A stretch of DNA of 64,000 nt from Clostridia bacterium (GCA_045589295.1 JAZNOU010000012.1:165353-229352); one strand, 5' to 3'; positions 7,616 through 49,162 are shown, counted from the stretch's first letter. Notes: generated by a model not told the origin, from the sequence alone. Translations and numbers: made by a program.

Positions 7616-7879
7616 ATGCGACTAAAAGATGGCTTTTTATTAAGAAATGTTGCCGGTGAATATGTTGTTGTCCCAACAGGGAACAGCATGGTTGACTTTA
7701 AGGCTATGATATCTCTTAATGAAACAGGCGCGTTTTTATGGGAGCAGCTTTTAGCAGACAAATCAGAGCAGCAACTTTTAGATGCGCTTTTGAGTGAGTA
7801 TGACGTTGATGAAAAAACCGCATCTGAAGATATTAAAGAGTTTGTAGAGTTGCTTAAAGAAAAGAACCTGTTGGTATGA
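7616..7879 (+). CDS. PqqD family protein (RiPP recognition element, lasso B1-like)
   Basis: The 87-aa product has the PqqD/RRE fold signature (MRLKDGFLLRNVAGEYVVVP...LNETGAFLWEQL...). A ribosome-binding site AAGGTG lies 5 nt upstream of the ATG, and the gene overlaps the next by ATGA. Confidence 0.8.
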   Translation: MRLKDGFLLRNVAGEYVVVPTGNSMVDFKAMISLNETGAFLWEQLLADKSEQQLLDALLSEYDVDEKTASEDIKEFVELLKEKNLLV

Positions 7880-9998: not shown

Positions 9999-10020
9999 AG
10001 TTTGTTTGGGAGGAATAAAG

Positions 10021-13736: not shown

Positions 13737-13766
13737 TCTGGTTTAATTTACATGGAGGAAAAATAA

Positions 13767-14459: not shown

Positions 14460-14487
14460 AAAAAGACAGTAAAATTTTTCAGAAAGG

Positions 14488-17400
14488 GTGAGAGAAGATA
14501 TGAGAAAGCGTGTAAAATCGCTTATTGGCATGATTATTGCAATGACTATGATCTTGCCGACGGCTTTGCCGGTGACAACTCCTGTTTCGGCACAAAATTC
14601 CTACGGATTTAATGATTTTCCTACCGGATGGTCAGCACCTGCAATGTCACATGCAGTTGAAAACGGATTGATATACGGAAAATCCGAAGACCGTATATGT
14701 CCTACAGATAATTTAACTAGAGCGGAAATGGCTACAATCATTAACCGTGCATTCGGTGCTACGGTGGAAAAGGATATTTCGGCATTTTCAGATGTAGCTC
14801 AGTCAGCTTGGTATTACAATGAAATAAAAAAGGCATACAATATGCAAACCCTTTATGGTGATGCAGGCGGCACTATGCGTCCCGATGCCTTTATTATAAG
14901 AGAAGAAGCCATAGCGATTGTTGCAAGAGCTATGGTTTTAAGTGGTTATTCGGCTTCTAATCTTGATAAGTTTAATGATAAAGACCAAATTGCAGATTGG
15001 GCAGTAGATCCGCTGGCTTCAATGGTAGCAAACGGCTACGTTAACGGCGATGAAAAGTCTAATATGAATCCGAAGGCATTCATTACCAGAGAAGAATTTG
15101 CTCAGCTTTTACATAATATTGTTAAGCATTATTATGATGCTGAAGATGGCGTAACAACATTCAACGGGAATGTTATGATTAATGAACCGACCACTTCATT
15201 GAGTGATTTGGTTGTTAATGGCGATCTTATTTTGGGTGATGGTGTTGGAACAAGCAACATTGTTCTAAAAAATGTTAAAGTAACAGGTCGTATCCTTATC
15301 AGAGGCGCAACCCATATTTCGTTTAAAAACAGCAACTTTGGTGGCGGCGTTACAGTTAAAAATGTTAATGATGTGGTACATTTTGATCATTTTAGTGATG
15401 AAGTGCATTTTAATGATATGCAAGATCACACAGAGGTCACATTTAAGAAGAAAACTACCGGCGGTGGCGGTGGTGGAACTCCTCCGGCACCTACAACTGC
15501 TAGTTATAAAGTGGAACACTATCAGGAAGCTTTGGATGGAAGTTTTGCAGTTTTTGAAACAGAAACCCTTTCAGGCAGTATTGGTGCAAGTGTTACAGCA
15601 GTAGCTAAAACCTATACAGGTTTTAGCGAAGATACTGTAAATCCATCAAGAGTTGCAACAGGCACTGTTGTATCTGATGGTTCTTTGACTCTTAAGCTTT
15701 TTTACACAAGAAACAGTTATACAGTAACATTTGATGCTCGCGGCGGTGCTATTTCAGGCACACCGAAAACTGTTTATAAATTCGGTGAAACATTAGAACT
15801 CCCTGTACCTACAAAAGGAACAGACACATTTGGCGGGTGGTGGACAGCGCTAAATGGAACAGGAACAAAAATTGAAAATACAAGCGTATTGGGAACAGAT
15901 ATTACATCTGCTGCCATTACTGTTTATGCGCATTGGATACCTGCAGCTCCGACTCCCACAGCTACGACGTTTACAGTAAAACATTTGTTTGAAAAACTTG
16001 ACGGAACTTATGAAACTAAAGCAGAACGCGGAGATGAACTTAACGTTGCCGGTGATATAACGGTTTCAATCGTTCCTGAAAATTACAGAAATCCGATTGC
16101 GGGATTTAATTATTTTGATTATAGCTTTGACGGAACAGACAATGCAGGCATGCCAAAAGCAGATGGAAGCACTGTTCTTAATATCCGTTATAATAGAAAG
16201 AGCTACGACATCGTATATAACTATGGTGAAGCAGGCGGAAGCAACACAGTTTCATTTAGATATGGTGAAAGTGTAGATCTTTCAATTCCGACAGTTACAC
16301 CACCTGTAGGTAAGTATTTTGCAGGTTGGTATGATGCACTTGTTGGCGGCACACAGGTAACATTCCTTGAAACACCTGTTGGCGGAACAACAATTTATGC
16401 ACGTTGGGCAGAAGATGTTGGAGTTTATACTGTTGAATTCTATCAGCAGAATTTGGATGGAACTTACACCCAAGTAACTGCGGACACTTTATCAGGACTT
16501 ACTGGTGTAGTAGGAACAGATGTAAGTGTGGATAAAAATTCGACCACAATCAAAGATAAGTATATAGGTTTTGAAGTTAATGAAACAGAAAGTACACTCA
16601 CACAAAGACTTGCTAAAACAGGCACAGTACTTAAAGTTTATTATGACAGAAAGATTTATACAATCGATTACGACTTTGATGGCGGTTATGCAGATGGAAC
16701 ATATACTGATACATTTATGTATGGCCAAACCGTTGCGCTTGCCAAAGGTAAAAATAGCAATGGCAAGGTTTTAGGCGGTTGGTTTACCGATTTAGATGGT
16801 AATGGCACACAGGTAACAGATACTGCAAATATTGATGCTATCTTAGGCGCGCTCACAGGCAATACAATCACACTTTATGCTTATTGGGTAGAAGAAATAG
16901 GCGAATATTCTGTTGAATTCTATCAGGAAACTTTAGATGGTGCTGATTATACTCTTGTTGCAGCTGACACTATTGTCGGTCTTACAGGAACAGTCGGCGA
17001 GAAAGTAGCTATTGATGCAACAATAGATGAAGTTAAGAATAAATATTCAGGCTTTACAGTAAACGTTGCAAAGAGTGAACTTTCAAAAACACTTGCTAAA
17101 GAGGGCACAGTTCTTAAAGTTTACTACGACAGAAATATTTATACCTTGTATTACAATTATAGCGATGCTGATACTGTGGGAATTGGAAGTGCGACCTTTA
17201 AACATGGTCAGAATATCACATTCCCTGATGAATCAACATTCAATAAAGAATCATTTAGCTTTGCAGGCTGGTACACAACCCAGGACTTTAAAGATGATGA
17301 AGTTGTAGATACAGGCAATACAATCGAACAGATTATAGACATTGCAAATGGTGAAACAGAAACTACCATATATGCTAAATGGGCAAAATTCTTCACAGTA

Positions 17401-20400
17401 ACATTCAGAGAGGGTGCAAAAATAGGAACGTACACAGTTGATCCTGCTGTTGAAAACACAGTTCCGTATTCTGCATTCCCTTACGACAAACTTGTTGAAC
17501 GTTATAAGACAGGTTACTTTGAAGATGAATCTGTATCTTCTGTATACGCAGGTAATGAGTATAAACACACATTTGAAGGACAGTGGTACTACACAGATGA
17601 AAACGGCAACGATGTCGTATTTACAGACGAAACAATTGTAGACCGCGATCTTACAGTAAGATATAAATTCAGATATGTGAGACTGGAACTTTTTGTTGAG
17701 AAATTAGGTCATAACCTTGTACTTGAGGTGCCTTTTGAAGAAAGTACAAGAATTATCGACACAATTAAAGATGAATTGTTTGTAAATCAGGAAAAAATAC
17801 TTTTGGTTGCAGATGAAGTTGATGCAAGAAGCAAGTTTATGGCGTTGAACCTTAAGTTGGTTAACTTCCTTGACAGTAAGGGAATTGAAATAGTTGAACC
17901 TGGTATGATTTTCGCCGAAGATGGCGAAATCTTAAAGCAACATATCAGATTTAATGCATTTGCATATCTTGATGAAGCAAGTGTTAAGACTGTTGTTGTA
18001 AACGCAATCAGAACAACATTCAAAAATGATCCTTTAAGAATGCGTGGCGTTATCGATGAAATGATGACAGAACAGGATGAAGACGTTGTTAACCTTATGG
18101 ATACAATGCTTGTATCTATGCTTTCAGGTTCAGATGCTGCAAGAATCAAGGGTATTATTGCAGATGCGGTGGAAGATGCGGTTGCAAATGATACAACCGG
18201 TGAGTTCAAAAACAAAATTAAAGACATCATAACAACACAGCTTGATGCAGGTAATACAACAGTTGAAACAAGCATTAAAAAGGCAATTAAAGATTACTTT
18301 ATGAACAGCGCAAATGATGCTAAAATCAGAGAAATCGTTTCAGACCTTATTGATGATGCTTATAAAACTGATGATGAAACCGATCCGGTAAGGAATTTCG
18401 TGAAGAGTTACATAAAGACATATCTTAACGAAAACCCAACAGTTTTAGATGATATGATCAGAGAAATGGGCGAAAATTTAGATCCTAATGATCCTAACGA
18501 TGCGCACATTATTGATCTTATTCATGAAGTTTTAGACGAAAATGTAATATATCTTGAAAAACTTGTTGATGATGCTATCAAGAACCTTAAAAACACAATA
18601 GGCGAACCAATACACAGCTTTATCGTTGATGCCATCACAACAGAGCTTTCAACTAATGCTGCTGAGCTTGATATTTTGATTGATGAAATCTCAAATGCAA
18701 ACGTAACTGATATTAAGTCGGTGCTTGCAACAGTTATGGAAGATAACGATACATTTGAAATTATTGTTAAAGATGCAATTGCCGATGAAGCGGTATTTAA
18801 TAAGGTTATCAAAGCTGCTCTTGACAACGCAAGTGTATTTGATGCAATCGTAAGCGAACTTTGCAGCGGCGATACGAGCTTCTATAATATGCTTGTAGAC
18901 ATTGCACTTTCGTCAGATTCACTTAAGGGCGAGGTTAAAAATGCAGTTGTTAATAATGATGATGCACTTATAAGCGTACTTAATGAAGTGGCATCTGATG
19001 CTTCACTTAAAGCTGAAATGGTTGAAGAAATTTTAGTTGCTTCTGATGCTAAGCTTAAAGATCAGCTTACAAGCCCGCTTTCTATAACATCGGATTATTA
19101 TGCAGACGTTAAAGCTCAGGCACTCAGTCAGGCTGAAACTGAAATAATAGGCATAATCGAAACAGGTATCAATGAAGATGAACACCCAGATTACTGGCCG
19201 ATTGCTTTTGAAAAGGCTATGGAAATAGCAGAAGCAAGAGTTAGACAGGATCTTATTGCTGGCAGTGTTGATCCTAACGGTTCACTTTGGGATACAATGT
19301 ATGCAGAGGCAATGGCTCAAGCAGCAATTGATGTCAAAGCAGAGCTTAACGGAGGTATTACTGATGCTTCAGAATACTACGCAGCTGCTGTAAATGGTGC
19401 TAAAGAGCAGGCAGAAAAAGAAATTACAGACTTACTTTCAACAGGTATTACTGAGGGTAGCAAGTACTGGGATGTTGCATATAGTACTGCAAAAGGAATT
19501 CTTAGAACCGAAATTGACACATCATTCGATTCAAAGATTGTAGAAATCAAGACAGATGCTAATCTTAAAGCACAGGTGGTAGCTTGGGCACAGACAGCGA
19601 TTAATAACACTAATATAGAAAGTGCTATTAAGAACTATGCTAAAGGCTTGGCTACAAGCACAGACTCTGCGGATGTTAGCCTTAGAACATCAATTATTGA
19701 CACTGTAATCAATACAGCAGATAGCTTAGAACCAGGTAAAAAAGAGACATTGGTTAGTGATATTATCACAGAGCTTTTGAAACCTGCAAATGCAACAGTT
19801 AAAGAGACTGTTGAAAACAAGGCTATTGAAGTATTAAACAGAGCTGAAAACAATGCACTTAAAACTACGCTTATCGATAGTGTGCTTGAAGATATCTTTG
19901 CTGACAACACACTTAAAGGCGATTTGATTGCAAGACTTAAGACTAAGGTTAAGGACCCTGCACAGGAAGCATTTAAGTTAACTGTTATTAGCGAAGCTAT
20001 CAATGCAGTTGTTAATGATAGCTCAGTTAATGCAAGGGCAGTTATAATAATAAATGACCTGATTGAAACAGATACTGCATTTAAGGCAGACATTATAGAG
20101 CACATCGTCGACTATATCTTAGAAGATGCTACTGTTAGAGCTGAAGCTATGGAAAAGGTTGTCGAAATGATTGAAGATCCGGAAGATGACAGCCATAAGC
20201 AGGAAGCAATCGACTTTGCGTTTGACACCCTTAAGGGCGACACAACGAAACGTGCAGAAATTGTGGATAAGTTCTTAACAAACATCTTAGGTAATAATGA
20301 CAAGAGAGAAGATATGGCAACAGAAGTTATCGACATTATGTTCTCTAACGATACCTTAAGAAATAGGATTTTAGATCTTGGGTTCGAACAGATGTTCGCA

Positions 20401-21714
20401 GGTGAAGATACAATTGCAGAAATTGTTTCACTTGCACTCGACGAACTCATTAGTGACGATACCGTAAGACGTGATATGATTATTGCAGTAATCAGCACTG
20501 AAAGCGGAAGAAGAAAGATTTTAGACATTCTCTTTGATGAACTTGAAAGGGATCCTGAGTTCATTGACGAAATAGTTGACATCGCAATGAACGGCAAGTA
20601 TGGCGATTTGGTTGATATATTTGTATCCGACCTTATTTACAACGGAAAGATTCAGATTAATCCAGACAACAGACAAATCGCAGAAGAAATCGTTCTTCCA
20701 ATGTTAGACGACATTTCTCTTGATACTGTTTTAGGCAAATTGCCCGCAAAAGTTACAGATGTTTTACCAACATCTGTAATCGAAAAGGCGTTTAACAAGT
20801 TTAAGTCAAAAGCAAGAGAACTTTTGGTTGAAGGTATAAATGAAGCTAAAGAAGGCAACTGGAAAGACATTTCAGTTATGGTGGACAACGAGCTTGATAT
20901 AATTAATGAAGTTTTAGTTCCGCTTTATAATAAAGTATTCCCGAAAGTTGTTGACAAAGCTGAGGACTTCTACTACTACAACGAAAATGTTTACTTAAAA
21001 GCAATAGTTGACATGATTGACCCTGAGTTCTTGCTTGATAACACAAAACCGGCATCAATTGGTGGAACAGGATACAGATTAAGAACAACAGAAGAATATT
21101 ATGAAATTATCAGAAATATCTCTGTTTTAGTTGATGATGCAGCAAACTGGTATATGGAAAACATTTCTGATGACCAGATTAACGGTGCTATTGACAAAGT
21201 TGCAGGAAAAGTTAATACTTTACTTGCAAAGGTTAATGGACTTGTGGGCGGAAGAATACCAATGTCTAAGATTGACAAAGTGGTTGAATACACCAAGAAG
21301 GCTCTTGATAAGAGAGAAAGCGTTTATAATATTACAACAAATGGTGTATTTGAAAAGGTTGACAAGGTTTATAACAAGCTTATTGAAATTGTTAAAAACA
21401 AAACCGGTGTTGATATTACTAAGTCTACTACGATAGAAGTTACTTTTGACGGAAGTGAAATCGACGTAAACGGTAAGGATGTCAACATTGACAATCGTAA
21501 GATAAGCATCAGTGTTAAAGGTTACAAATTTGAACTTGATTCAGAATCAATCACAGCACTTAACAAAACTGTTAATATTGACAGATTTGTTCAAAAAGCT
21601 GCCGATTTATTCGGAACAAGAAGTGTAACATTTAAAATTATAAATGATGCTCCGTACAGCTACGGTGCTTATGTGGGCAATAACTACATAAAGTTAGCTG
21701 CTGAGTACAAATAA
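14488..21714 (+). CDS. giant (2408 aa) SLH-anchored surface protein with Listeria-Bacteroides-type repeat modules and long acidic helical C-terminal region
   Basis: A signal peptide and three SLH repeats are followed by a Gly6 linker. At least six Y-x-V-x-F...GWY/W repeat modules come next, and then an about 1,300-aa D/E-rich low-complexity region. Confidence 0.85.
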   Translation: MREDMRKRVKSLIGMIIAMTMILPTALPVTTPVSAQNSYGFNDFPTGWSAPAMSHAVENGLIYGKSEDRICPTDNLTRAEMATIINRAFGATVEKDISAFSDVAQSAWYYNEIKKAYNMQTLYGDAGGTMRPDAFIIREEAIAIVARAMVLSGYSASNLDKFNDKDQIADWAVDPLASMVANGYVNGDEKSNMNPKAFITREEFAQLLHNIVKHYYDAEDGVTTFNGNVMINEPTTSLSDLVVNGDLILGDGVGTSNIVLKNVKVTGRILIRGATHISFKNSNFGGGVTVKNVNDVVHFDHFSDEVHFNDMQDHTEVTFKKKTTGGGGGGTPPAPTTASYKVEHYQEALDGSFAVFETETLSGSIGASVTAVAKTYTGFSEDTVNPSRVATGTVVSDGSLTLKLFYTRNSYTVTFDARGGAISGTPKTVYKFGETLELPVPTKGTDTFGGWWTALNGTGTKIENTSVLGTDITSAAITVYAHWIPAAPTPTATTFTVKHLFEKLDGTYETKAERGDELNVAGDITVSIVPENYRNPIAGFNYFDYSFDGTDNAGMPKADGSTVLNIRYNRKSYDIVYNYGEAGGSNTVSFRYGESVDLSIPTVTPPVGKYFAGWYDALVGGTQVTFLETPVGGTTIYARWAEDVGVYTVEFYQQNLDGTYTQVTADTLSGLTGVVGTDVSVDKNSTTIKDKYIGFEVNETESTLTQRLAKTGTVLKVYYDRKIYTIDYDFDGGYADGTYTDTFMYGQTVALAKGKNSNGKVLGGWFTDLDGNGTQVTDTANIDAILGALTGNTITLYAYWVEEIGEYSVEFYQETLDGADYTLVAADTIVGLTGTVGEKVAIDATIDEVKNKYSGFTVNVAKSELSKTLAKEGTVLKVYYDRNIYTLYYNYSDADTVGIGSATFKHGQNITFPDESTFNKESFSFAGWYTTQDFKDDEVVDTGNTIEQIIDIANGETETTIYAKWAKFFTVTFREGAKIGTYTVDPAVENTVPYSAFPYDKLVERYKTGYFEDESVSSVYAGNEYKHTFEGQWYYTDENGNDVVFTDETIVDRDLTVRYKFRYVRLELFVEKLGHNLVLEVPFEESTRIIDTIKDELFVNQEKILLVADEVDARSKFMALNLKLVNFLDSKGIEIVEPGMIFAEDGEILKQHIRFNAFAYLDEASVKTVVVNAIRTTFKNDPLRMRGVIDEMMTEQDEDVVNLMDTMLVSMLSGSDAARIKGIIADAVEDAVANDTTGEFKNKIKDIITTQLDAGNTTVETSIKKAIKDYFMNSANDAKIREIVSDLIDDAYKTDDETDPVRNFVKSYIKTYLNENPTVLDDMIREMGENLDPNDPNDAHIIDLIHEVLDENVIYLEKLVDDAIKNLKNTIGEPIHSFIVDAITTELSTNAAELDILIDEISNANVTDIKSVLATVMEDNDTFEIIVKDAIADEAVFNKVIKAALDNASVFDAIVSELCSGDTSFYNMLVDIALSSDSLKGEVKNAVVNNDDALISVLNEVASDASLKAEMVEEILVASDAKLKDQLTSPLSITSDYYADVKAQALSQAETEIIGIIETGINEDEHPDYWPIAFEKAMEIAEARVRQDLIAGSVDPNGSLWDTMYAEAMAQAAIDVKAELNGGITDASEYYAAAVNGAKEQAEKEITDLLSTGITEGSKYWDVAYSTAKGILRTEIDTSFDSKIVEIKTDANLKAQVVAWAQTAINNTNIESAIKNYAKGLATSTDSADVSLRTSIIDTVINTADSLEPGKKETLVSDIITELLKPANATVKETVENKAIEVLNRAENNALKTTLIDSVLEDIFADNTLKGDLIARLKTKVKDPAQEAFKLTVISEAINAVVNDSSVNARAVIIINDLIETDTAFKADIIEHIVDYILEDATVRAEAMEKVVEMIEDPEDDSHKQEAIDFAFDTLKGDTTKRAEIVDKFLTNILGNNDKREDMATEVIDIMFSNDTLRNRILDLGFEQMFAGEDTIAEIVSLALDELISDDTVRRDMIIAVISTESGRRKILDILFDELERDPEFIDEIVDIAMNGKYGDLVDIFVSDLIYNGKIQINPDNRQIAEEIVLPMLDDISLDTVLGKLPAKVTDVLPTSVIEKAFNKFKSKARELLVEGINEAKEGNWKDISVMVDNELDIINEVLVPLYNKVFPKVVDKAEDFYYYNENVYLKAIVDMIDPEFLLDNTKPASIGGTGYRLRTTEEYYEIIRNISVLVDDAANWYMENISDDQINGAIDKVAGKVNTLLAKVNGLVGGRIPMSKIDKVVEYTKKALDKRESVYNITTNGVFEKVDKVYNKLIEIVKNKTGVDITKSTTIEVTFDGSEIDVNGKDVNIDNRKISISVKGYKFELDSESITALNKTVNIDRFVQKAADLFGTRSVTFKIINDAPYSYGAYVGNNYIKLAAEYK

Positions 21715-21721
21715 TTAATGG

Positions 21722-21756
21722 TCAGCGGGTAAACAGTATAAGTTTACCCGCTTGAT
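21722..21756 (+). terminator. putative intrinsic terminator
   Basis: A GCGGGTAAAC...GTTTACCCGC 10-bp stem lies directly after the giant ORF stop. The T-tract is weak. Confidence 0.45.
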
Positions 21757-21779
21757 TAAAAAAGAGAGGATGATACATT

Positions 21780-23345
21780 TTGAAAAAAGCATTATGTCTT
21801 GTTTTAGCTTTAATGTTATGTCTTCCATCTGTGGTTGCTTTTGCAGACATAGAAGGAACTGTACAGGGCGATATAATGCTCACTTCAACAGAGGGCGAAG
21901 CTTTGCCTGAGGATAAAGAAACTGCAACTGAAACATCAGATGCGCTTAAGTTCAGCGATATTATTGCAGATTCGGTTCTTGGTGAGGCTGTATACAAGCT
22001 TGTTGATGCAAAGGTGATATCGGGGTATCCTGATGGCACATTCAGACCTGATTCAGGGGTGACTCGTGCCGAACTTTGTAAAATGATAAATCTGGTTTAT
22101 GATTTAGATGTAAAAGCGACAAGTATGTCTTTTAAAGATGTAACAGAAGAAGACTGGTATTATGATTACGTTTTGGTTGCGGTCCAGGCGGGATATATTA
22201 AAGGCTTTACAGATAACACATTCAGAGGGGACGACCCTGTTACAAGAGAACAGGCGTGTGCTATTATAAACAGAGTAACAACAGCAAAAGGTGCAAGTCT
22301 TTTTGACTTACCTTTTACAGATAACATAACAGATGCTGTGTCAGATTGGGCATTGGAAGATGTTAAAAAAATTATTGCAAACTATGTAATGCCTTTGGAA
22401 GCAGGCGGTAAATTCCGTGCAACAGAGGATATTACAAGAGGCGAGCTTGCGCTTGCATTAGAAGGTTTTGTTGTTATAGTTCCTGAATATACAGTAACTT
22501 TTGAAACAAATGGAGGAAGTGAGATTGCTTCTGTTGTGGTTAAAGAGGGTAAAACAGTTGCAAAACCTGAAGATCCGAAAAAAGATAACTATACTTTCAA
22601 TGGTTGGTATACAGACAGTAAGCTTAAAACTGCTTATGATTTTGAAAAAACGGTTTCAGATAACATTACACTTTATGCAAAATGGCAGGCAAAAGTAACA
22701 GGCGGTGGCGGTGGAGGAGTTTATATTCCGCCTTCAGGTGGTACACCTTCATCGTACACAGTAACCTTTAATTCAAAAGGCGGCAGTGCAGTTGACAGCG
22801 TAACGGTTACATCGGGCGCAACAATTTCAGCACCTGCAGAGCCTACAAAAGAAATGAAAGTGTTTACAGGCTGGTATACAGACTCTGCTTGCACAAATCT
22901 TTTTGATTTTACAACTCCAATAACAGGCAATATTACGCTTTATGCGGGTTGGGAAGATGACCATGCGGCTATGAATGGTCAAAAAATATCCGACCTTACA
23001 ATATTTAAAGAGGCGTTGGTTGCTACTACATTTGACATTCAGCCTCATACAGACATGGCAAGCATAATTGTTTCCACGTTTGAAAGTGTGATTTCTGATG
23101 GTGAGTCCGGAATAATTCTTACAAATGACTATATTAAAACAACGTACGAAGCAAATATGCTCCAGATAAAAGATATTTGGGAGAATCAGCTGTTTGTAGA
23201 TACATTCTCAGACGAGCAACAGGATTTTAAAGATAAAATAGCGCTTGTTTTAACAGATGCACAAGCAAACGGCTATTCAATGTCACTTTCAGAAACTTAT
23301 GTATTGTTCAGAACAATAATAGGTGATTTTATAAATTGGGAATAA
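21780..23345 (+). CDS. SLH-domain surface protein with Flg_new (Listeria-Bacteroides) repeats
   Basis: It has a signal peptide, SLH repeats, two YTVTF...GWYTD repeat modules and Gly-rich linkers, making it a paralogue of the giant protein's N-terminal architecture. Confidence 0.8.
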   Translation: MKKALCLVLALMLCLPSVVAFADIEGTVQGDIMLTSTEGEALPEDKETATETSDALKFSDIIADSVLGEAVYKLVDAKVISGYPDGTFRPDSGVTRAELCKMINLVYDLDVKATSMSFKDVTEEDWYYDYVLVAVQAGYIKGFTDNTFRGDDPVTREQACAIINRVTTAKGASLFDLPFTDNITDAVSDWALEDVKKIIANYVMPLEAGGKFRATEDITRGELALALEGFVVIVPEYTVTFETNGGSEIASVVVKEGKTVAKPEDPKKDNYTFNGWYTDSKLKTAYDFEKTVSDNITLYAKWQAKVTGGGGGGVYIPPSGGTPSSYTVTFNSKGGSAVDSVTVTSGATISAPAEPTKEMKVFTGWYTDSACTNLFDFTTPITGNITLYAGWEDDHAAMNGQKISDLTIFKEALVATTFDIQPHTDMASIIVSTFESVISDGESGIILTNDYIKTTYEANMLQIKDIWENQLFVDTFSDEQQDFKDKIALVLTDAQANGYSMSLSETYVLFRTIIGDFINWE

Positions 23346-24782: not shown

Positions 24783-25670
24783 ATGTTTAATATTGTAAAA
24801 AATAAAAAGATTTTCTATATCGTTTCAGCAGTTATTATCCTCGCAGGTATTGTTTCAATGCTTACACAGGGCTTTAAAATGGACATTGATTTTGCTGGCG
24901 GTATTGAATGTACAGTAAATGTAGGCGCTGAAGTAGACAGTGCTAAATTAAGTGAAATTGCAAGTATTGTAAAAGAAGCAACAGGTTCTAATGCAACTGT
25001 TATTAAAACAGGTGTAAATGGTACAGAAGCACTCATTAAAATTTCTGATGAGCTTACAACAGAAAAAGAACTTTCTATGAAAGCTGCACTTAAAGAAAAG
25101 CTTGGCATCGAGGATAATGCAATTACAAACTTTGAGGTTGTTTCACCTACAGTAGGAAAAGAAATGCAGACTTCTGCTTTGTTGGCGGTTATTATCGCAG
25201 TAGCTTTGATGCTTGTTTACATTTCTGTAAGATTTGAATTTTTGTCAGGTTGTGCTGCAGTATGTGCACTTATCCATGACGTTTTGATTATGCTTTCATT
25301 CTACTCAATTTTTGGAATTGCAATCAATACAACATTTATTGCTGCAATTCTTACAATTTTGGGTTACTCAATCAACGCAACTATCGTTCTTTTCGACAGA
25401 GTAAGAGAAAATCAGAAACTTACAAGAAAAGAAACATTTTCAAACATCGTAAATACAAGTGTGTGGCAGACAATGTTTCGTTCATTAAATACTTCAATCA
25501 CAACACTTGCAACAATTATTGTATTGTTCTTTGTTGGTGTTGATTCAATCAAAGAATTTGCACTTCCTATTACAGTTGGCGTTGTTGCAGGCTTTTACTC
25601 ATCAGTATTCCTTTCAGGTAACATCTGGGTTGAGTTTAAAAAACTTGCTAAGCACAAAAATGTTGCATAA
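24783..25670 (+). CDS. secF: protein translocase subunit SecF
   Basis: The 295-aa product has the SecF topology and conserved C-terminal TM bundle. Confidence 0.85.
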   Translation: MFNIVKNKKIFYIVSAVIILAGIVSMLTQGFKMDIDFAGGIECTVNVGAEVDSAKLSEIASIVKEATGSNATVIKTGVNGTEALIKISDELTTEKELSMKAALKEKLGIEDNAITNFEVVSPTVGKEMQTSALLAVIIAVALMLVYISVRFEFLSGCAAVCALIHDVLIMLSFYSIFGIAINTTFIAAILTILGYSINATIVLFDRVRENQKLTRKETFSNIVNTSVWQTMFRSLNTSITTLATIIVLFFVGVDSIKEFALPITVGVVAGFYSSVFLSGNIWVEFKKLAKHKNVA

Positions 25671-25689
25671 AATATTAGTTTAAATTATA

Positions 25690-25730
25690 GCTTCCCGACT
25701 TAAATAGTCGGGAAGCTTTGTTATATATTT
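25690..25730 (+). terminator. intrinsic terminator after secF
   Basis: The hairpin GCTTCCCGACT-TAAAT-AGTCGGGAAGC is followed by a T-rich tract. Confidence 0.55.
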
Positions 25731-25780
25731 TTTGTTTTTGCACGGTTTGGGTCAATAATGTATAAATATTCATAAATCAG

Positions 25781-25809
25781 TTTACTTTTTTGAATAATTG
25801 TGGTATACT
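25781..25809 (+). promoter_or_regulatory. promoter TTTACT-17-TGgTATACT (extended -10) for the GC-rich RNA
   Basis: The -35 element is at 25781-25786 and the extended -10 (TGGTATACT) at 25801-25809. Confidence 0.45.
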
Positions 25810-25814
25810 ATTGT

Positions 25815-26445
25815 TGTAAAATTGGGTGGTGCAGTATTCTAGTCAGATTTTTTCATTCCCAGGACGGGCCTAAAAATCCGTTGAAGGGCACATCGATGAA
25901 GTTTCTGGTGCGGGCTTTCGACGCCCAGTCGAGGGTTTGTGCTGGGAGTTAAGGATTAAGGGCGGTCGGCAATGGCATGCAGAATTCGACCCTTCTTCCG
26001 TGGAGACCTATACTTGTGCCGTATTGGCCGACTAGTCTGTGAAGACTCGGCTGAAAAGGTACGACTTAGGATTAAACCTGCGTTGCGGTCTTTTTTGGCT
26101 GTGCGCAGAGTAGCCTGCCTTGAGCGGTTGTGGTGGATTGCAAGATCAGGTTTTGTCTGGTTGGCCGACCGGACAAAACTATTGCTTCATGAAACCACAT
26201 TTGCAAAAGAGGCTAAGATTGATTAAATCTGTCGAGGAAATCTCCTAGACTGTTGGAAACAGATACGCAAAGGATTGAAGTGCGGACTAAGTGGCAATCG
26301 GGTACAAAGTTGAGCGATCGCTTTGGTCTTCTTTTAAAGGGAAACCGCTTACATCGGCGACGAGTGAGCAAGAAGGCGGGAAAGCCAACCCGACCTAAGC
26401 CGTAAATTTTACTTTGTGTATTACCCCTTAAATTTACATTTATTT
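25815..26445 (+). ncRNA. OLE (ornate large extremophilic) RNA candidate
   Basis: This is an about 600-nt GC-rich (about 50% against about 33% background) ORF-poor island with its own promoter. It sits immediately upstream of a 4-TM 21-kDa protein gene and dxs-tlyA-nadK-argR-recN, which is the published OLE/oapA synteny. Confidence 0.6.
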
Positions 26446-26459
26446 GGGAGAAATGATAA

Positions 26460-27029
26460 TTGAAAAAGAAAATTAGATTTAAACCGGGAAAGAAACAAAT
26501 AAGCATAAAATATATTTTTGTGATTTCTTTAATAACTCTTGCTATTGCCGTTTTAATGAAAGCAATAAGCGATGCTATTTTGGAAAATATTGTATTAACA
26601 TACAGCTATTTTATTCTGCTGGGAATAATTTTAATTGGTATTATATTTGACATAGTAGGCGTTGCGGTTACTTCAAGTGACGATACAAAATTTCACGCTA
26701 TGGCGGCAGACAAAGTGTATGGAGCAAAAGAAAGCATTATGCTTATAAAAAATGCGGAAAAAGTTTCCAGTATCTGCAATGACGTAATAGGTGATGTGTG
26801 TGGTATTGTAAGTGGAGCAGTGTCCTCTTGGGTTGTAGTGCAACTTGCAATGGGGGCACTAAAAGGCGAAGAAATTCTCGCTCTGGTTATGACAGGCGTT
26901 GTTTCGGCATTAACTGTAGGTGGCAAAGCTCTTGGTAAGTTTTTTGCACTTAATTACAATTGCAGTATTGTGTATATTGCGGGGAAAATAATACGATTTT
27001 TTAAGTTTTCCAAGAACTATAGGAGGTAG
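26460..27029 (+). CDS. oapA: OLE-associated protein A (OapA)-like small 4-TM membrane protein
   Basis: The 189-aa product has four predicted TM helices and a TTG start with a GGAG ribosome-binding site. Its position between the structured RNA and dxs is the assignment's main support. Confidence 0.6.
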   Translation: MKKKIRFKPGKKQISIKYIFVISLITLAIAVLMKAISDAILENIVLTYSYFILLGIILIGIIFDIVGVAVTSSDDTKFHAMAADKVYGAKESIMLIKNAEKVSSICNDVIGDVCGIVSGAVSSWVVVQLAMGALKGEEILALVMTGVVSALTVGGKALGKFFALNYNCSIVYIAGKIIRFFKFSKNYRR

Positions 27030-27032
27030 ACC

Positions 27033-28847
27033 GTGGGCATTATTGATAACATTAATTCGCCAAAAGACGTTAAAAAACTTAATAATGCCGAGCTTAAGAG
27101 GTTAGCTGGTGAGATAAGAGAAAGCTTGCTTAAGTCAGTGTCAAAAACAGGGGGACATTTGGCTTCAAATTTAGGAATAGTTGAAGTTACTCTTGCGCTT
27201 TTTAAGGTGTTTAATTTGCCTGAAGATAAGATTGTATATGACGTTGGACATCAGTGCTATGTACATAAAATTTTGACCGGCAGAAAAGACCGTATGGACA
27301 GTTTAAGAACGCATGGCGGTTTGGCGGGATTTCCCAAAATTCAGGAAAGCGAGTATGACTTTTTTAACACAGGACATTCAGGAAATTCGGTTTCTGTCGC
27401 AATGGCACTTGCCGAGGCAAACAGATTGAATGAAAAAGATGCATTTGCAATTGCAGTAATTGGTGACGGCTCGTTATCAAATGGACTTGCTTTTGAGGGG
27501 CTTAATAACGCAGGCAGAAAAAAATCAAATCTCGTTGTTGTTTTAAATGACAACGAAATGAGCATATCACAAAATGTTGGCAGTCTTAGCAATTACTTGA
27601 GTATGCTCAGAACTAAACCTGAGTATTCAGGTTTTAAGAAGAAAGTTGAACGAGGACTTGGACATATAAAGGGAATTGGTGAGGGTATTGCCAAGGCGCT
27701 TTCTGTTACCAAAGACAGTCTAAAGCACCTTTTAATTCCAGACACAGTGTTTGAAGCACTGGGTTTTACCTATGTTGGTCCTATAGATGGACATGATATT
27801 GAGCTTTTAACAACAGTGTTTGAGCAGATTAAGACTATTGACAAGCCTGTTTTAGTTCACGTTATTACCAAAAAAGGTAAGGGGTATTCTTTTGCAGAAA
27901 ACAATCCTGCAGCGTACCACGGAATTGGCCCGTTTGACATAAAAAAACCATTGTTTTTACAGCAAAAAAAAGAGTCTTATGCATTTGCACTTGATGAAAT
28001 TTTATGCAAAGAGGCGGAAGTAAATAAAGATGTAATAGGAATTTGCGCGGCAATGGAACATGCTGTTGGAATGAACAAATTCCACAAAAAATTCCCTGAC
28101 AGATTTTATGATGCAGGAATATGCGAAGGACATGCTGTGACTTTTGCAGCGGGGCTTGCTGCAGCAGGTAAAATTCCTGTGGTTGCAATTTATTCAACCT
28201 TTATGCAAAGGGCGTACGATAATATAATAAGCGATGTTGCGCTGACTAATCAGCACGTTGTATTTTGTATGGACAGGGCAGGAATAACAGGTCAGGACGG
28301 GGAAACTCATCATGGTGTTTTTGATGTTTCTTTTATGCTTCACATACCGAATATGACGGTCTTGACACCTAGAAATTCAAATGTGTTCAGACTTGCTCTT
28401 AAGGCGGCGATTAACGATATAAATGGACCTGTTGCAATAAGATATCCTAAATCGGAATCAAACGATATGTCATCTCCGGATGATATTTTCAAGGCGGAAT
28501 TTTTGCGCGAGGGTAAAAATGTTACCGTTATTACAATGTCGCAGATGACTGAAGTGGTTATGGCTCTGGATTTTGATGGTGACCATATAAATTTAAACAG
28601 TATAAAACCTATTGACAAGGATGCTATTATCAAATCTGCAATAAAAACCAAAAGAGTTGTAACTGTTGAGGACAATATTGTAAAAGGCGGAATGGGTGAA
28701 ACGATTTCAGATATTTTAAAAGAACTTGACGTGAAAGTTGTTAATCTAGGCATAAAAGACAGTTTTGTCAAGCATGGTAAAACAAGTGAGCTGTTAGATG
28801 AAATTGGACTTGGCGGTAAGGATATTCAAAAGGTGATTTTAGAATGA
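27033..28847 (+). CDS. dxs: 1-deoxy-D-xylulose-5-phosphate synthase
   Basis: The 604-aa product has a GTG start after an AGGAGG ribosome-binding site and a thiamine-diphosphate binding motif (GDGSLSNGLAFEGLNNAG) in the transketolase-like fold. Confidence 0.9.
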   Translation: MGIIDNINSPKDVKKLNNAELKRLAGEIRESLLKSVSKTGGHLASNLGIVEVTLALFKVFNLPEDKIVYDVGHQCYVHKILTGRKDRMDSLRTHGGLAGFPKIQESEYDFFNTGHSGNSVSVAMALAEANRLNEKDAFAIAVIGDGSLSNGLAFEGLNNAGRKKSNLVVVLNDNEMSISQNVGSLSNYLSMLRTKPEYSGFKKKVERGLGHIKGIGEGIAKALSVTKDSLKHLLIPDTVFEALGFTYVGPIDGHDIELLTTVFEQIKTIDKPVLVHVITKKGKGYSFAENNPAAYHGIGPFDIKKPLFLQQKKESYAFALDEILCKEAEVNKDVIGICAAMEHAVGMNKFHKKFPDRFYDAGICEGHAVTFAAGLAAAGKIPVVAIYSTFMQRAYDNIISDVALTNQHVVFCMDRAGITGQDGETHHGVFDVSFMLHIPNMTVLTPRNSNVFRLALKAAINDINGPVAIRYPKSESNDMSSPDDIFKAEFLREGKNVTVITMSQMTEVVMALDFDGDHINLNSIKPIDKDAIIKSAIKTKRVVTVEDNIVKGGMGETISDILKELDVKVVNLGIKDSFVKHGKTSELLDEIGLGGKDIQKVILE

Positions 28848-29641
28848 AGACAAGGCTTGATGTATATCTTTTTGAAAATAATCTGGCAGAAAGCAGAGAA
28901 AAAGCAAAAAGCATTATTATGAGTGGAAATGTGTATGTCAACAATCAAAAAGCCGACAAGGCGGGGTTTGTAGTAAATGATGGTGATAGTGTTGAAGTAA
29001 GAGGCAAGCAAAATCCTTATGTAAGCCGAGGCGGATTAAAGCTTGACAAGGCAATGAAGGTATTTGACATAACACTTAAGGATAAGGTTTGTATGGACAT
29101 CGGTGCTTCAACCGGCGGATTTACAGACTGTATGCTTCAAAACGGGGCAAAAAAAGTTTTTTCTGTTGATGTTGGCTATGGTCAACTTGCATGGAAGTTA
29201 AGATGCGACGAAAGAGTCGTTAATATGGAAAGAACCAACATAAGAAACGTAACAAAGGAGCAAATTGCACAAGATATTGATTTTGCATCTGTTGATGTTT
29301 CGTTTATTTCACTAAAACACGTTTTGCCTGTTGCAAAACAGCTTTTAGCAGAAGGAGGCGAAATGGTTTGTCTTATAAAACCGCAATTTGAAGCGGGAAG
29401 AGAAAAGGTTGGTAAAAAGGGCGTTGTAAGGGATATTAATGTTCACTACGAGGTAGTTTATAACATAATTGAGCTTGCAAAAAGCGAGGGCTTTTATCCC
29501 AGTGCACTTGACTATTCACCAATCAAAGGACCAGAAGGGAATATTGAATATATAATTCACTTAAAAACAATTGAAACAGAAAGTGAAATTGATGTTAAAA
29601 AAGTGGTGGATTTAAGCCACGAAAATTTATCAGCACTTTAA
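28844..29641 (+). CDS. tlyA: TlyA family rRNA (cytidine-2'-O)-methyltransferase / hemolysin A
   Basis: It has an N-terminal S4 domain (RLDVYL...) and an FtsJ-type SAM methyltransferase motif (DIGASTGGFTD). Confidence 0.85.
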   Translation: MKTRLDVYLFENNLAESREKAKSIIMSGNVYVNNQKADKAGFVVNDGDSVEVRGKQNPYVSRGGLKLDKAMKVFDITLKDKVCMDIGASTGGFTDCMLQNGAKKVFSVDVGYGQLAWKLRCDERVVNMERTNIRNVTKEQIAQDIDFASVDVSFISLKHVLPVAKQLLAEGGEMVCLIKPQFEAGREKVGKKGVVRDINVHYEVVYNIIELAKSEGFYPSALDYSPIKGPEGNIEYIIHLKTIETESEIDVKKVVDLSHENLSAL

Positions 29642-29648: not shown

Positions 29649-30497
29649 ATGTTTATGAAAAAAATTGCACTTATAACAAATTTAACAAGGGACAAAGATT
29701 TAGAGCACACAAGAAATGTTGCAAAGAGTCTTTGTGAGTTTGGTGCGCAAATTTTTTCAAATATAAAGGAAATAGAAAACACTACTTATGCAGAAATTGA
29801 AGATGCCTTTAAAAATGCAGATATGGCGGTTGTTTTAGGCGGCGACGGAACACTTATAAGAGCGTCTAAGTATGCTATAAAATATGATGTTCCCATTTTG
29901 GGATACAATATAGGAAATCTCGGATTTTTAGTTGAACTTGAAAAAGGCGAGAAAGATGAACTTTCAAAGATTTTTACCGACGAGTATGAAATTGAAAACA
30001 GAATTATGCTGCATGTAAGTGTTTCAAGAAACGGTGAAGAGATTTTCAAATCAACTGCATTAAATGATGTTGCAGTTTCGCGCGGTGTTATCTCAAAAAT
30101 GACACATCTTAAACTTAGTGTTGATAACAAATACGTAAGTGACTATTATGCAGACGGCATAGTGATTGCAACACCTACAGGTTCGACCGCATATTCGTTG
30201 TCGGCGGGAGGACCGGTTGTAGCACCAAACCTTGATGTTATGATTATAACACCCATTTGTGCACACACCGTAACTTCAAGACCAATGGTTATTTCAGATA
30301 AAAGCACAGTGGATATAAGCGTTGATATTTACCACAGTGAAGATGTTGTGGTTATGTGCGACGGGGAGCGCGGCATTGAGCTTAAAAGCGGTGATGTTGT
30401 TACAGTTACAAAAGAAGAAAGATGCGCAAAGCTTATAAGGTTTGGAAAGAGAAGCTTTTTTGATGTGCTTCATCAAAAACTTTCGGAGAGAAAATAA
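29649..30497 (+). CDS. nadK: NAD(+) kinase
   Basis: It has the GGDGT motif and an NE/DGxxxxTxxGSTAYSLSAGGP motif. Confidence 0.85.
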   Translation: MFMKKIALITNLTRDKDLEHTRNVAKSLCEFGAQIFSNIKEIENTTYAEIEDAFKNADMAVVLGGDGTLIRASKYAIKYDVPILGYNIGNLGFLVELEKGEKDELSKIFTDEYEIENRIMLHVSVSRNGEEIFKSTALNDVAVSRGVISKMTHLKLSVDNKYVSDYYADGIVIATPTGSTAYSLSAGGPVVAPNLDVMIITPICAHTVTSRPMVISDKSTVDISVDIYHSEDVVVMCDGERGIELKSGDVVTVTKEERCAKLIRFGKRSFFDVLHQKLSERK

Positions 30498-30513: not shown

Positions 30514-30969
30514 ATGTCCAAAAAGAGAAGACATGACGAAATTTTGAGACTTATCAGTGAAAATGTAATAGAAACACAAGGTCAGCTTACTCAGCTTTTG
30601 TTGGATGAGGGTTTTGATGTTACGCAGGCCACAGTTTCAAGAGATATAAAAGAATTAAGGCTTGTTAAGGTTTCTGACTACGACGATAACTACAGATATG
30701 CAATGTCAAGAAATGAAAACCATGCTTCAATTATGTCAAGAAACGTTCAGCTTTTAAAGCATGTTATTTTAAGCGTTGAAAGTGCGAAAAATATTGTTGT
30801 TATTAAAACTCTGGCAGGTTCAGCACAGGGGTGTGCAAGTGCTTTAGAGTCAATGAATTTTGAAAAAATAGTTGGAGTTATTGCAGGGGATGATACCATT
30901 TTTGCAGTAGTTCCTGATGATTCGGATGCTAACAGACTCATTCGAAAAATAGAAGAGGTATTAAAGTAA
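30514..30969 (+). CDS. argR: arginine repressor ArgR
   Basis: An ATG at 30514 follows a GGAGGA ribosome-binding site. The protein has a winged-helix N-terminus (QATVSRDIKEL) and a C-terminal oligomerisation domain (GDDTIF). Confidence 0.8.
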   Translation: MSKKRRHDEILRLISENVIETQGQLTQLLLDEGFDVTQATVSRDIKELRLVKVSDYDDNYRYAMSRNENHASIMSRNVQLLKHVILSVESAKNIVVIKTLAGSAQGCASALESMNFEKIVGVIAGDDTIFAVVPDDSDANRLIRKIEEVLK

Positions 30970-32642
30970 TGCTCAGCCATTTACACATTGAAAACATAGC
31001 CATTATGGATAACGTAGACATAGAGCTTGAAAACGGCTTTCTTGCACTTACAGGTCAGACTGGTGCGGGAAAGTCTATTATCATTGACTCTATTAATCTC
31101 TTAACAGGCGAAAGAAGTTCACGTGAGCTTGTTAAAAGTGGTAAAGACAAGGCTTTTGTTGAAGGTGTGGTTTATACTGAAAATAAAGAGGCACTTGAAA
31201 TTTTATCGCAAAACGGAATTGACGCTTTCGAGGGTGAGCCGCTTGTATTAAGCAGAGAAATTACCAAAGACGGCAGAAGCACAGTAAGAATTAACGGGAG
31301 AATTTCAACTACCCACGTATTAAAAGATGTTTGCTCTAAAATTATCAATATTCATGGTCAAAACGATAATCAAAGCATTTTAGACACTAAATTCCACGGC
31401 CTTTTTTTAGACAGTTTTGCTTCTCTTTCAGATGAAATTGAAGAATATCAAAGCATTTTTGACGAGTTTGTAAAAACGCAAAATCTTTTAAAGCAAACAG
31501 ACCAGGATGAAGAACAAAAAGAGCAAAGGAAAGAATTTTTAGAGTTTCAGATAAATGAAATCGAGCAGGCAAATCTTACTCTAGGAGAAGATGAAGAACT
31601 TTTAACCCAAAGACAAAGATTTTTGAACAATGAAAAGTTTGAAGAAAGCGTTAACAAAAGCTATTATGCCTTGGCGGGCTCGGAAGATTTTGATGGTGCG
31701 TGCTCTTTAGTGAAATCTGCACAGAAAGGTTTAGATGACCTTGCAAAGTTTGAACCCAGAGCAGAAAAAATTTCAGAGAAAATAAAAGACATTTTAAGTG
31801 AGCTTGAAGATATAAAGGAAACAGTTTACGACCTTAAAAATGATGATGACTTTGCAGAAATAGATATTAACTTTGTTGAGTCAAGAATAGATGTAATTAA
31901 CCGCCTTAAAAGGAAATATGGGGGAGAAATTGAAGACATTTTAAGCAAAAAAGAAGAACTTACAGATGAACTTTCAGCTATTGAAAACAGTACAGAAAAT
32001 AAAAAGGCTCTTAAAGAAAAAGCAGAAAAGTTAGAGCTTGAGCTTACAAAGAAAGCAGTAAAAATTGAAGCGGCAAGAAAACTTTCAGCAGAAAAACTTA
32101 AAAAAGAGGTAGCAAATCAGCTAAAAGACCTTGAGATGGAAAAGGTTGAGTTTGACACCAAGATTTCAAGATGCGAATTTTCAAGACGCGGCTTTAACGA
32201 TATTCAGTTTTTAATTTCAACAAACCCAGGTGAGCCTTTAAAACCGCTTAACAAAATCGCATCAGGCGGTGAACTTTCAAGAATTATTTTAGCATTAAAA
32301 GTTGTGCTTTCAGGAAAAGACAGCGTTTCAACTATGATTTTTGACGAGGTTGACGTAGGTGTCGGTGGAAGCGCGGCGCAGAAAATTGCAGAAAAGCTTA
32401 GAAGCATTTCAAAGGACAAGCAGGTTATTGTTATAACTCACTTGGCGCAAATTGCAAGTTTTGCAGATAACCACTACCTTATTTCCAAAAAGGTTGAAAA
32501 CGGAAATACTTATTCTGAAATAAATCTTTTGTCAGATACACAAAGAATAGATGAAATTGCTAGAATTATGAGTGGCAGCGTTATTACAGAAAGCACAAGG
32601 GGTGCTGCTGAAGAAATGATTAATATGGCAAAACAATTTTAA
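30969..32642 (+). CDS. recN: DNA repair protein RecN
   Basis: The 557-aa SMC-like protein has Walker A (GQTGAGKS), coiled coils and a C-terminal signature/Walker B region. Confidence 0.9.
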   Translation: MLSHLHIENIAIMDNVDIELENGFLALTGQTGAGKSIIIDSINLLTGERSSRELVKSGKDKAFVEGVVYTENKEALEILSQNGIDAFEGEPLVLSREITKDGRSTVRINGRISTTHVLKDVCSKIINIHGQNDNQSILDTKFHGLFLDSFASLSDEIEEYQSIFDEFVKTQNLLKQTDQDEEQKEQRKEFLEFQINEIEQANLTLGEDEELLTQRQRFLNNEKFEESVNKSYYALAGSEDFDGACSLVKSAQKGLDDLAKFEPRAEKISEKIKDILSELEDIKETVYDLKNDDDFAEIDINFVESRIDVINRLKRKYGGEIEDILSKKEELTDELSAIENSTENKKALKEKAEKLELELTKKAVKIEAARKLSAEKLKKEVANQLKDLEMEKVEFDTKISRCEFSRRGFNDIQFLISTNPGEPLKPLNKIASGGELSRIILALKVVLSGKDSVSTMIFDEVDVGVGGSAAQKIAEKLRSISKDKQVIVITHLAQIASFADNHYLISKKVENGNTYSEINLLSDTQRIDEIARIMSGSVITESTRGAAEEMINMAKQF

Positions 32643-32651: not shown

Positions 32652-33059
32652 ATGGAACAGGCATTTGGCAGGATTGAAAGTATAAAAGGCGATTTAGCAG
32701 TTGTTTTAATACAAAGGGGAAGTATGTGCGGTGAAAATTGTTCATCTTGCGGTATGTGCGGCGGAGCAAAAACAAAAATCACGGCAAAAAATACAATTGG
32801 TGCAAATGTTGGCGACAGTGTTGTTTTAAGCGTGCCTACTTCAAAGGGCTTGAAGGCAACATTGCTTGTTTACGGAGTTCCTGTTTGTATTTTGATATTG
32901 TCTGCTATATTGTTTCAAAATGTAGGTTTTTCGGAAAGCATTTCTGTGCTTTTTGGGTTTTTATTAATGGTAGTATGGTTTTTAGCTATATTTTTTTTAG
33001 AAAAAACAGGTAAATTTGAAAAAGATATATTGGCAAGTATAGTTAAAAAGAGGGGCTAA
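32652..33059 (+). CDS. RseC/MucC (SoxR-reducing system) family protein
   Basis: It has an N-terminal Cys cluster (CGENCSSCGMCGG) and two C-terminal TM helices. Confidence 0.55.
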   Translation: MEQAFGRIESIKGDLAVVLIQRGSMCGENCSSCGMCGGAKTKITAKNTIGANVGDSVVLSVPTSKGLKATLLVYGVPVCILILSAILFQNVGFSESISVLFGFLLMVVWFLAIFFLEKTGKFEKDILASIVKKRG

Positions 33060-44085: not shown

Positions 44086-44161
44086 GCACCATTAGCTCAG
44101 TTGGTAGAGCACCTGACTCTTAATCAGGGTGTCCGGGGTTCGAGCCCCCGATGGTGTACCA
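44086..44161 (+). tRNA. tRNA-Lys (anticodon CTT), CCA-encoded
   Basis: The 76-nt cloverleaf has a GCACCAT acceptor, a TAGCTCAGTTGGTAGAGC D-arm, an anticodon loop CTCTTAA, a GGTTCGAGCCC T-arm and a 3' CCA. Confidence 0.9.
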
Positions 44162-49136: not shown

Positions 49137-49162
49137 GTTTTTAAGGAAGGAGGAAGTTACAC

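Follow-up and report, generated by a model that had tools for sequence, protein, structure and literature searches.

The 64,000-nt stretch of Clostridia DNA that was analysed here as a whole (the window) carries a full-length OLE RNA at positions 25810–26443, followed at 26460–27029 by the gene for its membrane partner OapA. We put the probability of this reading at about 0.96. That the RNA is a complete OLE, which motifs for protein binding it has, the footprint of its promoter, the assignment of the protein and the gene neighbourhood are all matters of observation and are described below; the features are collected in Table 1. The OLE RNA of the window is a further ordinary member of a well-catalogued family and nothing newly discovered. 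The only departures of this locus are a longer helix P7 and a left boundary that is specific to its clade. OLE RNA is reportedly the subject of a paper by Puerta-Fernandez and coworkers from 2006. The family has been known since that year and more than 2,800 representatives have been catalogued (PMC11332333); its consensus was updated by Fernando & Breaker in 2024 (PMC11332333).

Table 1. Features of the OLE RNA locus and its downstream genes (positions are counted from the first nucleotide of the window).
Feature	Position	Strand	Description
Terminator-like hairpin after secF	25689–25717	+	12 pairs, 7 of them G-C, loop of 5 nt, T-rich tail; TTGTTATATA
Conserved palindrome-like block just 5′ of the -35 hexamer	25759–25772	+	TGTATAAATATTCA; ARG-box-like
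Putative sigma-70-type ole promoter	25781–25809	+	-35 TTTACT (25781–25786), 17-nt spacer, extended -10 TGgTATACT (25801–25809)
OLE RNA gene	25810–26443	+	Full-length type; Rfam RF01071 match
Helix P1	25824–25830 paired with 26423–26429	+	Ends of the structured core; RNAalifold
Conserved segment adjoining P5	25886–25903	+	GGGCACAUCGAUGAAGUU; identical to the Rfam consensus
Helix P7	26007–26070	+	GUGA tetraloop cap; Rfam alignment and folding
Helix P13	26305–26325	+	GCGA (GNRA) tetraloop 26314–26317, single bulged U 26310; RF01071 alignment
P14.1 loop	26357–26360	+	Second GCGA loop; RF01071 alignment
Putative RBS of oapA	26446–26450	+	GGGAG, 9 nt before the TTG start
oapA	26460–27029	+	189-aa membrane protein, TTG start, four hydrophobic segments, distant CNNM/DUF21 relation
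dxs	27033–28847	+	TIGR00204, 651.9 bits (cut-off 466)
tlyA (rRNA cytidine-2′-O-methyltransferase)	28844–29641	+	TIGR00478, 276.3 bits (cut-off 185.8)
nadK (NAD kinase)	29649–30497	+	NAD_kinase_C 134.4 bits, NAD_kinase 50.3 bits
argR (arginine repressor)	30514–30969	+	TIGR01529, 140.7 bits (cut-off 130.45)
recN (DNA repair protein)	30969–32642	+	TIGR00634, 519.3 bits (cut-off 407.85)

The first-pass annotation had proposed an OLE RNA in this region and had suggested a search with the OLE covariance model. We compared the whole 64-kb window with all 4227 Rfam families, and the strong match that had been predicted was obtained. RF01071, which has a gathering score of 50 bits, matches the plus strand with 513 bits (E 1.4e-147). 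The matched sequence of 634 nt covers model positions 1–616 of 616 and is not truncated, and the mean posterior accuracy of the match is 0.97. Among the loci compared this is the highest OLE score. It could be argued that the region encodes a different large RNA which merely resembles OLE, such as a group II intron fragment, RNase P, tmRNA or a long leader or riboswitch, and the first three had been named beforehand as what the region might match instead. Nothing in support of this alternative was found: within 25810–26443 the scan of the 4227 families returned neither a group II intron nor RNase P, tmRNA or any other competing family, and OLE, matched accurately from end to end, stands alone there. 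The probability that another RNA is at hand is therefore vanishingly small. Elsewhere in the window the Rfam matches are those of an FMN riboswitch (3371–3487) and a tRNA (44086–44158).

Between the end of secF (24783–25670) and the start of the 189-aa reading frame lies a gap of 789 nt. This gap had been described as noncoding, and the ORFs called inside it as spurious. It contains short ORFs only, namely three on the plus strand (50, 84, and 50 aa) and one of 97 aa on the minus strand. That at least one of them is a real small gene would be in line with their mere existence and with the two 50-aa ORFs, both of which remain uninterrupted in the four closest relatives. We nevertheless regard a coding function as extremely improbable. 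The 84-aa ORF is interrupted by one to four in-frame stop codons already in relatives with 89–92% identical DNA, and all four ORFs contain two to seven stops in more distant OLE loci, so that none of the reading frames is conserved. Moreover, an RBS-led start is absent, the substitutions preserve base pairs and not codons, and the RNA model with its 513 bits accounts for the whole region. The in-frame stops together with the pair-preserving substitutions indicate that selection acts on the RNA structure and not on a protein. The high G+C content that had been pointed out is likewise evident. The OLE match has 47.0% G+C compared with 37.4% on average (sd 2.6%) for windows of 634 nt, and ranks first among the 1268 windows of this size in the 64-kb sequence; the local G+C content climbs to 46–52% in the gap versus 28–40% in other DNA. 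For the annotation of genomes this means that a known RNA accounts completely for a noncoding gap and for the spurious ORFs within it.

The secondary structure was examined with an alignment of nine OLE sequences from loci that had been fetched with the protein (59–92% identical to the window), which was folded independently of Rfam. RNAalifold predicted 177 base pairs, and for 89 of these the alignment contains substitutions of both partners by which the pairing is maintained. The long-range helix P1 was recovered in this Rfam-independent fold. Helix P7 forms a stable three-part hairpin (-27.6 kcal/mol, z = -4.66) and is about 21 nt longer than in the Rfam consensus; the extension is common to the close relatives and shows compensatory changes. 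Helix P11 is 4 nt shorter than in the model consensus. In the RF01071 alignment no deletions are seen in P7, P8, P9 and the tip of P13. Because all helices are present the OLE RNA of the window belongs to the full-length type.

OLE RNA is bound by several proteins, and the OapA-binding palindromes are said to have been mapped on the RNA by Block and coworkers in 2011. For the binding of OapB both the GNRA tetraloop and the single-nucleotide bulge of P13 are needed (PMC7936274). P13 of the window carries both of these features. In the RF01071 alignment the sequence GGGCACAUCGAUGAAG of J4a/5 is identical to the consensus, and the segment near P5 corresponds to the region that in H. halodurans forms the k-turn bound by OapC/YbxF (PMC9723947); in the window it is a candidate for such a k-turn.

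A terminator in front of the RNA and a promoter of its own had also been claimed, and candidates for both were found with the properties listed in Table 1. The terminator-like hairpin starts 19 nt past the stop codon of secF and would set the ole operon apart from the transcript of secDF. The promoter matches the hexamers at 9 of 12 positions and has in addition the TG of the extended -10 element. In the window and in four relatives both hexamers and the TG are invariant, whereas the other intergenic DNA is too divergent to be aligned, apart from a block just 5′ of the -35 hexamer (see below). This amounts to a phylogenetic footprint of the promoter. Transcription is predicted to start around position 25816–25818, 6–8 nt before P1. 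The footprint would place the 5′ end of OLE a few nucleotides before P1, which could aid the design of expression constructs.

On the 3′ side of the RNA the ribosome binding site (AGGAG or GGGAG) and the TTG start codon of oapA are kept in four relatives (L001, L002, L006, and L008). No terminator was seen between OLE and oapA, and likewise none that separates OLE from dxs, tlyA, nadK, argR, and recN. OLE is therefore probably the 5′ part of a long transcript which is trimmed at the 3′ end of the RNA, and ole would open an operon that extends through oapA, dxs, tlyA, nadK, argR, and recN. Processing on the 3′ side would probably release OLE from this long transcript.

The reading frame downstream of OLE starts 16 nt past the end of the Rfam match on the same strand. 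It had been described as a small protein with four transmembrane segments and had been proposed to be oapA. Four hydrophobic stretches are indeed seen in the Kyte–Doolittle hydropathy of the 189 residues, and long helices are present in the AlphaFold model. The termini are basic, with eight Lys/Arg residues among the first 25 and six among the last 20 and not a single acidic residue. In Pfam the protein gives a match to PF01595 (CNNM) over residues 52–181 which is below threshold (19.6 bits versus a cut-off of 28.4, E 8e-4). No other Pfam domain, including CBS and CorC/HlyC, was found in the 189 residues, and no NCBIfam model matches the protein. The same weak CNNM match is given by 28 of 35 family members. 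This is the pattern described for OapA, whose similarity to CNNM/DUF21 is weak and which forms the second-best score cluster to PF01595 after the true MpfA proteins (PMC11332333).

Homologues of similar length number more than 5000 (5074 in the list, of which the best 120 are shown). The exact protein of the window is absent from the assembly index, and a scan of reference genomes with the single protein returned three loci. An alignment of 35 homologues contains 29 invariant columns, among them those of GIxFD, NDVIGDxCG, and TVGGKAxGK, and the window protein keeps all 29. Two of the invariant residues in these 35 homologues, D108 and D112 of the NDVIGD motif, are spaced i/i+4. In H. halodurans, the residues D100 and D104 are mutated in the dominant-negative PM1 protein (PMC9723947). 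By their equal spacing D108 and D112 may correspond to D100 and D104.

The relation to CNNM proteins also appears in the predicted structure. The AlphaFold model (pLDDT 78.2, pTM 0.69) was compared with known structures by Foldseek, and ranks 1–4 are taken by the archaeal CNNM protein MtCorB (7M1T and 7M1U) with probabilities of 0.90–1.00 and marginal E-values (0.04–0.5); all matches after rank 4 have a probability of at most 0.15. The TM-scores of the MtCorB matches, normalised to the query, are 0.39–0.53. A search of the PDB by sequence gave chance-level matches to GPCRs only, and the relation to CorB is visible by fold alone. It is the structure 7M1U by which OapA has been related to MpfA in the literature. 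The OapA protein of H. halodurans is BH2780 (WP_010898928.1).

The association of the protein with the RNA was followed in two sets of loci. The first set was collected with a pattern derived from the 5′ domain of OLE alone and comprises 120 metagenomic loci, 76 of which are long enough to be judged. In 74 of these 76 a profile of the OapA homologues matches an ORF on the same strand (median 198.7 bits), in 72 cases directly after the RNA. From this co-occurrence it follows that the 189-aa protein belongs to the ole-adjacent family, i.e., OapA. In the second set, found with the protein, 10 of 12 informative loci (L001–L010) have OLE immediately in front of the homologue. In the remaining loci L012 (assembly GCA_031551205.1) and L013 the same gene cluster begins with a homologue of 47% identity, and OLE was not found in 12.6 kb.

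These last two loci, together with the CNNM-like sequence and fold, raise the question of whether the 189-aa protein could be a stand-alone cation transporter of the CNNM type that lies beside OLE and works without the RNA. We consider this very unlikely. A homologue accompanies OLE in nearly all of the loci found with the RNA, as stated above, and the strongly basic termini would suit a contact with RNA. Binding and localisation data have been published for the H. halodurans protein (summarised in PMC12265935), and the ole gene of L012 may sit elsewhere in its genome. Judged by its adjacency to OLE in independent loci, the sub-threshold CNNM match and the predicted CorB-like fold, the protein can be identified as OapA as had been proposed, and the entry "hypothetical membrane protein" at 26460–27029 should be named OapA.

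A further alternative concerns the state of the RNA. The gene could be a relic which is still recognisable as OLE but no longer functional in a reduced gut organism. Occasional defective ole genes as well as trimmed variants occur in gut lineages with reduced genomes (PMC11332333), and variant-like relatives with losses are present among the fetched loci: in L004 the tip of P13 is missing, and L003, which comes from a MAG of the Bacilli, has no P7. However, defective ole copies are reported where oapA is absent, and the oapA gene of the window is intact with 29 of 29 invariant family columns kept. In contrast to these relatives no helix is missing in the window and its score is the highest of the loci compared. 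The ole promoter is under purifying selection, and the close relatives are 89–92% identical with compensatory changes. We therefore consider a relic highly improbable and hold to the reading as a full-length OLE RNA with its OapA partner.

The gene order around the locus is secD, secF, the gap, the 189-aa protein, dxs, tlyA, nadK, argR, and recN. With the exception of the 189-aa protein every one of these neighbours scores above the curated Pfam or NCBIfam cut-offs. The start of argR is probably the ATG at 30514 and not the TTG at 30442: the match to TIGR01529 begins at residue 27–29 of the long argR ORF and the homologues have 149–152 aa. The neighbourhood had been called canonical for OLE, and the counts in the loci found with the RNA bear this out. 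Homologues after OLE were found for dxs in 46 of 49 loci, for tlyA in 38 of 39, for nadK in 14 of 24, for argR in 19 of 22, and for recN in 11 of 12; the complete order dxs-tlyA-nadK-argR-recN is present in 7 of the 12 loci that are sufficiently long. These observations agree with the literature (PMC10898510, PMC12265935). The left side is different. The secDF genes are found to the left of ole also in L006 and L008 and in none of the 68 other OLE loci.

The closest loci are from Clostridia MAGs of the human and goat gut, relatives of the lineage being found on JAZRDC010000030.1 and JAFQRW010000006.1, and the window contains Firmicutes-like genes for SLH surface proteins, a protein of the SpoVE/FtsW family and ECF transporters. 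As an uncultured Clostridia bacterium of the gut the host fits the host range of OLE (typically anaerobic or extremophilic Bacillota). Genes for OapB/YbzG, OapC/YbxF, and MpfA were not found among the approximately 40 proteins of the window that were scanned, a 64-kb sample being uninformative for the genome.

Just upstream of the -35 hexamer we identified the conserved block TGTATAAATATTCA, which is situated at -51 from the Rfam start of OLE in the window and in L001, L002, L006, and L008. It agrees at 13 of 14 positions with the ARG-box core TGAATWWWWATTCA, the consensus quoted in PMC5291005. For H. halodurans, binding of ArgR to OLE RNA has been reported (PMC10898510). If ArgR controlled the transcription of ole in this clade of gut Clostridia via TGTATAAATATTCA, a feedback loop would result in which ArgR both controls OLE and is bound by it, with argR being a distal gene of the same operon. 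The block is the sole exact match in the 64 kb to a slightly relaxed ARG-box pattern, which was picked after the site had been seen. When the true consensus is used and one mismatch is tolerated, the window has two sites versus 0.97 expected. In a set of 104 non-redundant regions upstream of ole, sites with at most one mismatch occur in the clade of the window only (three observed, which are not independent, versus 0.47 expected), and sites with exactly two mismatches number eight versus 5.2 expected. Since the site frequency is at chance level and the sites are confined to the clade of the window, the ARG-box reading was demoted to a weak lead, and control of ole by ArgR appears unlikely. The block may be an UP element, an ArgR site or the site of another factor.

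What the RNA and the protein could do in this organism is drawn from the work on Halalkalibacterium halodurans and from cryo-EM. OLE RNAs form dimers, are tethered to the membrane by OapA, and bind OapB, OapC, and bS21 (PMC12265935, PMC9723947, PMC10898510). Growth in the presence of ethanol, in the cold, at raised Mg2+ and on poor carbon sources depends on these RNAs (PMC12265935, PMC9723947, PMC10898510). OapA is similar to the membrane-spanning portion of the CNNM-type Mg2+ transporters, whose regulatory CBS and CorC domains it does not have (PMC11332333). By analogy, a folded OLE dimer would be held at the cell membrane by the CNNM-like OapA and would recruit OapB at P13/P12.2, and OapC or bS21 would bind at alternative k-turns near P5. 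Such a particle would make the cell more tolerant of ethanol, cold, poor carbon sources, and an excess of Mg2+. This would most likely proceed via the control of OapA-mediated transport of divalent cations, with OLE as the regulatory and sensing module; the RNA would then supply the sensing and regulation which the CBS and CorC domains supply in MpfA and CorB. This cation-transport mechanism is the working hypothesis of the field for the whole OLE family. Expression, processing, membrane localisation, and a role in ion transport would accordingly be expected for OLE and OapA of the window by the same analogy. The locus adds little to OLE biology beyond another full-length representative from an uncultured lineage of gut Clostridia, and the biochemistry of the OLE particle is no more testable with it than with the existing model organisms.

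Compared with the known systems, the locus of the window is closest to the full-length OLE RNAs described by RF01071. It matches these in length, in all helices of the model and in the conserved single-stranded segments, and it has the GNRA loops of P13 and P14.1, the bulged U of P13, and the consensus sequence of the putative k-turn; the differences in the lengths of P7 (about 21 nt longer) and P11 (4 nt shorter) are minor. As in other full-length loci the host is a member of the Bacillota from the anaerobic gut and oapA lies directly downstream. The two OLE variants belong to the same family and likewise come from Bacillota of the gut that are uncultured and known through metagenome assemblies. 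Variant 1 (TANB77-type) has short helices P7–P9 and often no OapB site at the tip of P13, and variant 2 (RF39-type) is devoid of P7 and P8 (PMC11332333). In contrast, the OLE RNA of the window keeps P7, P8, P9, and the P13 tip, which the variants shorten or lose.

In H. halodurans the ole gene is part of a cluster which is transcribed as one polycistronic RNA (PMC12265935), whereas ole of the window would open its operon after a promoter of its own and the secDF terminator. By description, OapA of H. halodurans is likewise a small membrane protein whose gene follows ole directly, and it shares the weak CNNM/DUF21 similarity and the CorB-like fold; its Asp-x3-Asp pair may correspond to that of the window protein. 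The difference noted for OapA of the window is its TTG start. The CNNM Mg2+ transporters MpfA, CorB, and CorC have the fold of the transmembrane domain in common with the window protein. These transporters comprise at least 300 aa, whereas the window protein ends at residue 189 without the CBS pair and CorC/HlyC and with a CNNM match that is below threshold only, which places it outside this group. Unlike MpfA, whose genes anticorrelate with ole (PMC11332333), the window protein is paired with an RNA.

An ARG-box-like palindrome, TGTATAAATATTCA, was located upstream of the promoter of ole, the OLE RNA gene, and its distance from this promoter is fixed in the window and in the four relatives that share it (L001, L002, L006 and L008). 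The gene argR is a member of the operon that follows the palindrome. The count of ARG-box-like sites is not above chance, and no such palindrome was found in the ole upstream regions beyond the clade of the window.

At the other end of the cluster a gene of the RseC/MucC family is common to the window and the related loci L004, L006 and L008. Among the nine loci of sufficient length that had been retrieved by the OLE 5' domain pattern alone, a homologue was found in none. This gene is a clade-specific extension of the ole-oapA cluster.

According to the literature, the co-occurrence of OapA and OLE is near-constant. In the related locus L012/L013 a 205-aa OapA homologue heads the dxs-tlyA-nadK-argR-recN cluster as in the window, with 33 nt between this homologue and the end of the HutP-family gene on its upstream side. 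Across this whole 12.6-kb locus no match to OLE was obtained, even at E <= 1. Either ole is situated elsewhere in this genome or this is a rare case of OapA without OLE.

Features in the window and in related loci
Feature	Position	Remark
FMN riboswitch	3371-3487	117.7 bits
ECF-type riboflavin transporter S component gene	3559-4104	directly 3' of FMN riboswitch
SLH-domain protein	12126-13736	
Wzz-like protein	13767-14459	
2408-aa ORF	14488-21714	
SLH + Listeria-Bacteroides-repeat protein	21780-23345	521 aa
ARG-box-like palindrome	25759-25772	conserved, upstream of ole promoter
RseC/MucC-family gene	32652-33059	directly 3' of recN
tRNA gene	44086-44158	
Region of the 205-aa OapA homologue	L012:5560-6618, L013:1982-3040	homologue 47% identical; GCA_031551205.1, contig JAVBNY010000025.1
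OLE RNA of L004	L004:5348-5984	
OLE RNA of L003	L003:4677-5261	Bacilli MAG

Elsewhere in the window, positions 12126-23345 hold a series of cell-surface genes; similar giant SLH/Flg_new proteins are encoded upstream of secDF in L006 and L008. The FMN riboswitch and the riboflavin transporter gene are an ordinary, expected pair. Judged from ORF sizes and order, 48504-63610 looks like S10-spc-alpha, the large operon of ribosomal-protein genes, which also includes secY, adk, map and rpoA. The ORFs at 7876-8328 (150 aa), 10006-10977 (323 aa) and 11236-12111 (291 aa) gave no Pfam match at E <= 1e-5.

Two relatives have lost parts of the OLE RNA. L004, whose OapA is 56% identical to that of the window, lacks the tip of helix P13, which is the OapB site, and the RNA of L003 lacks helix P7. 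The RNAs of L004 and L003 show a likeness to the published trimmed OLE types, variant 1 and variant 2.
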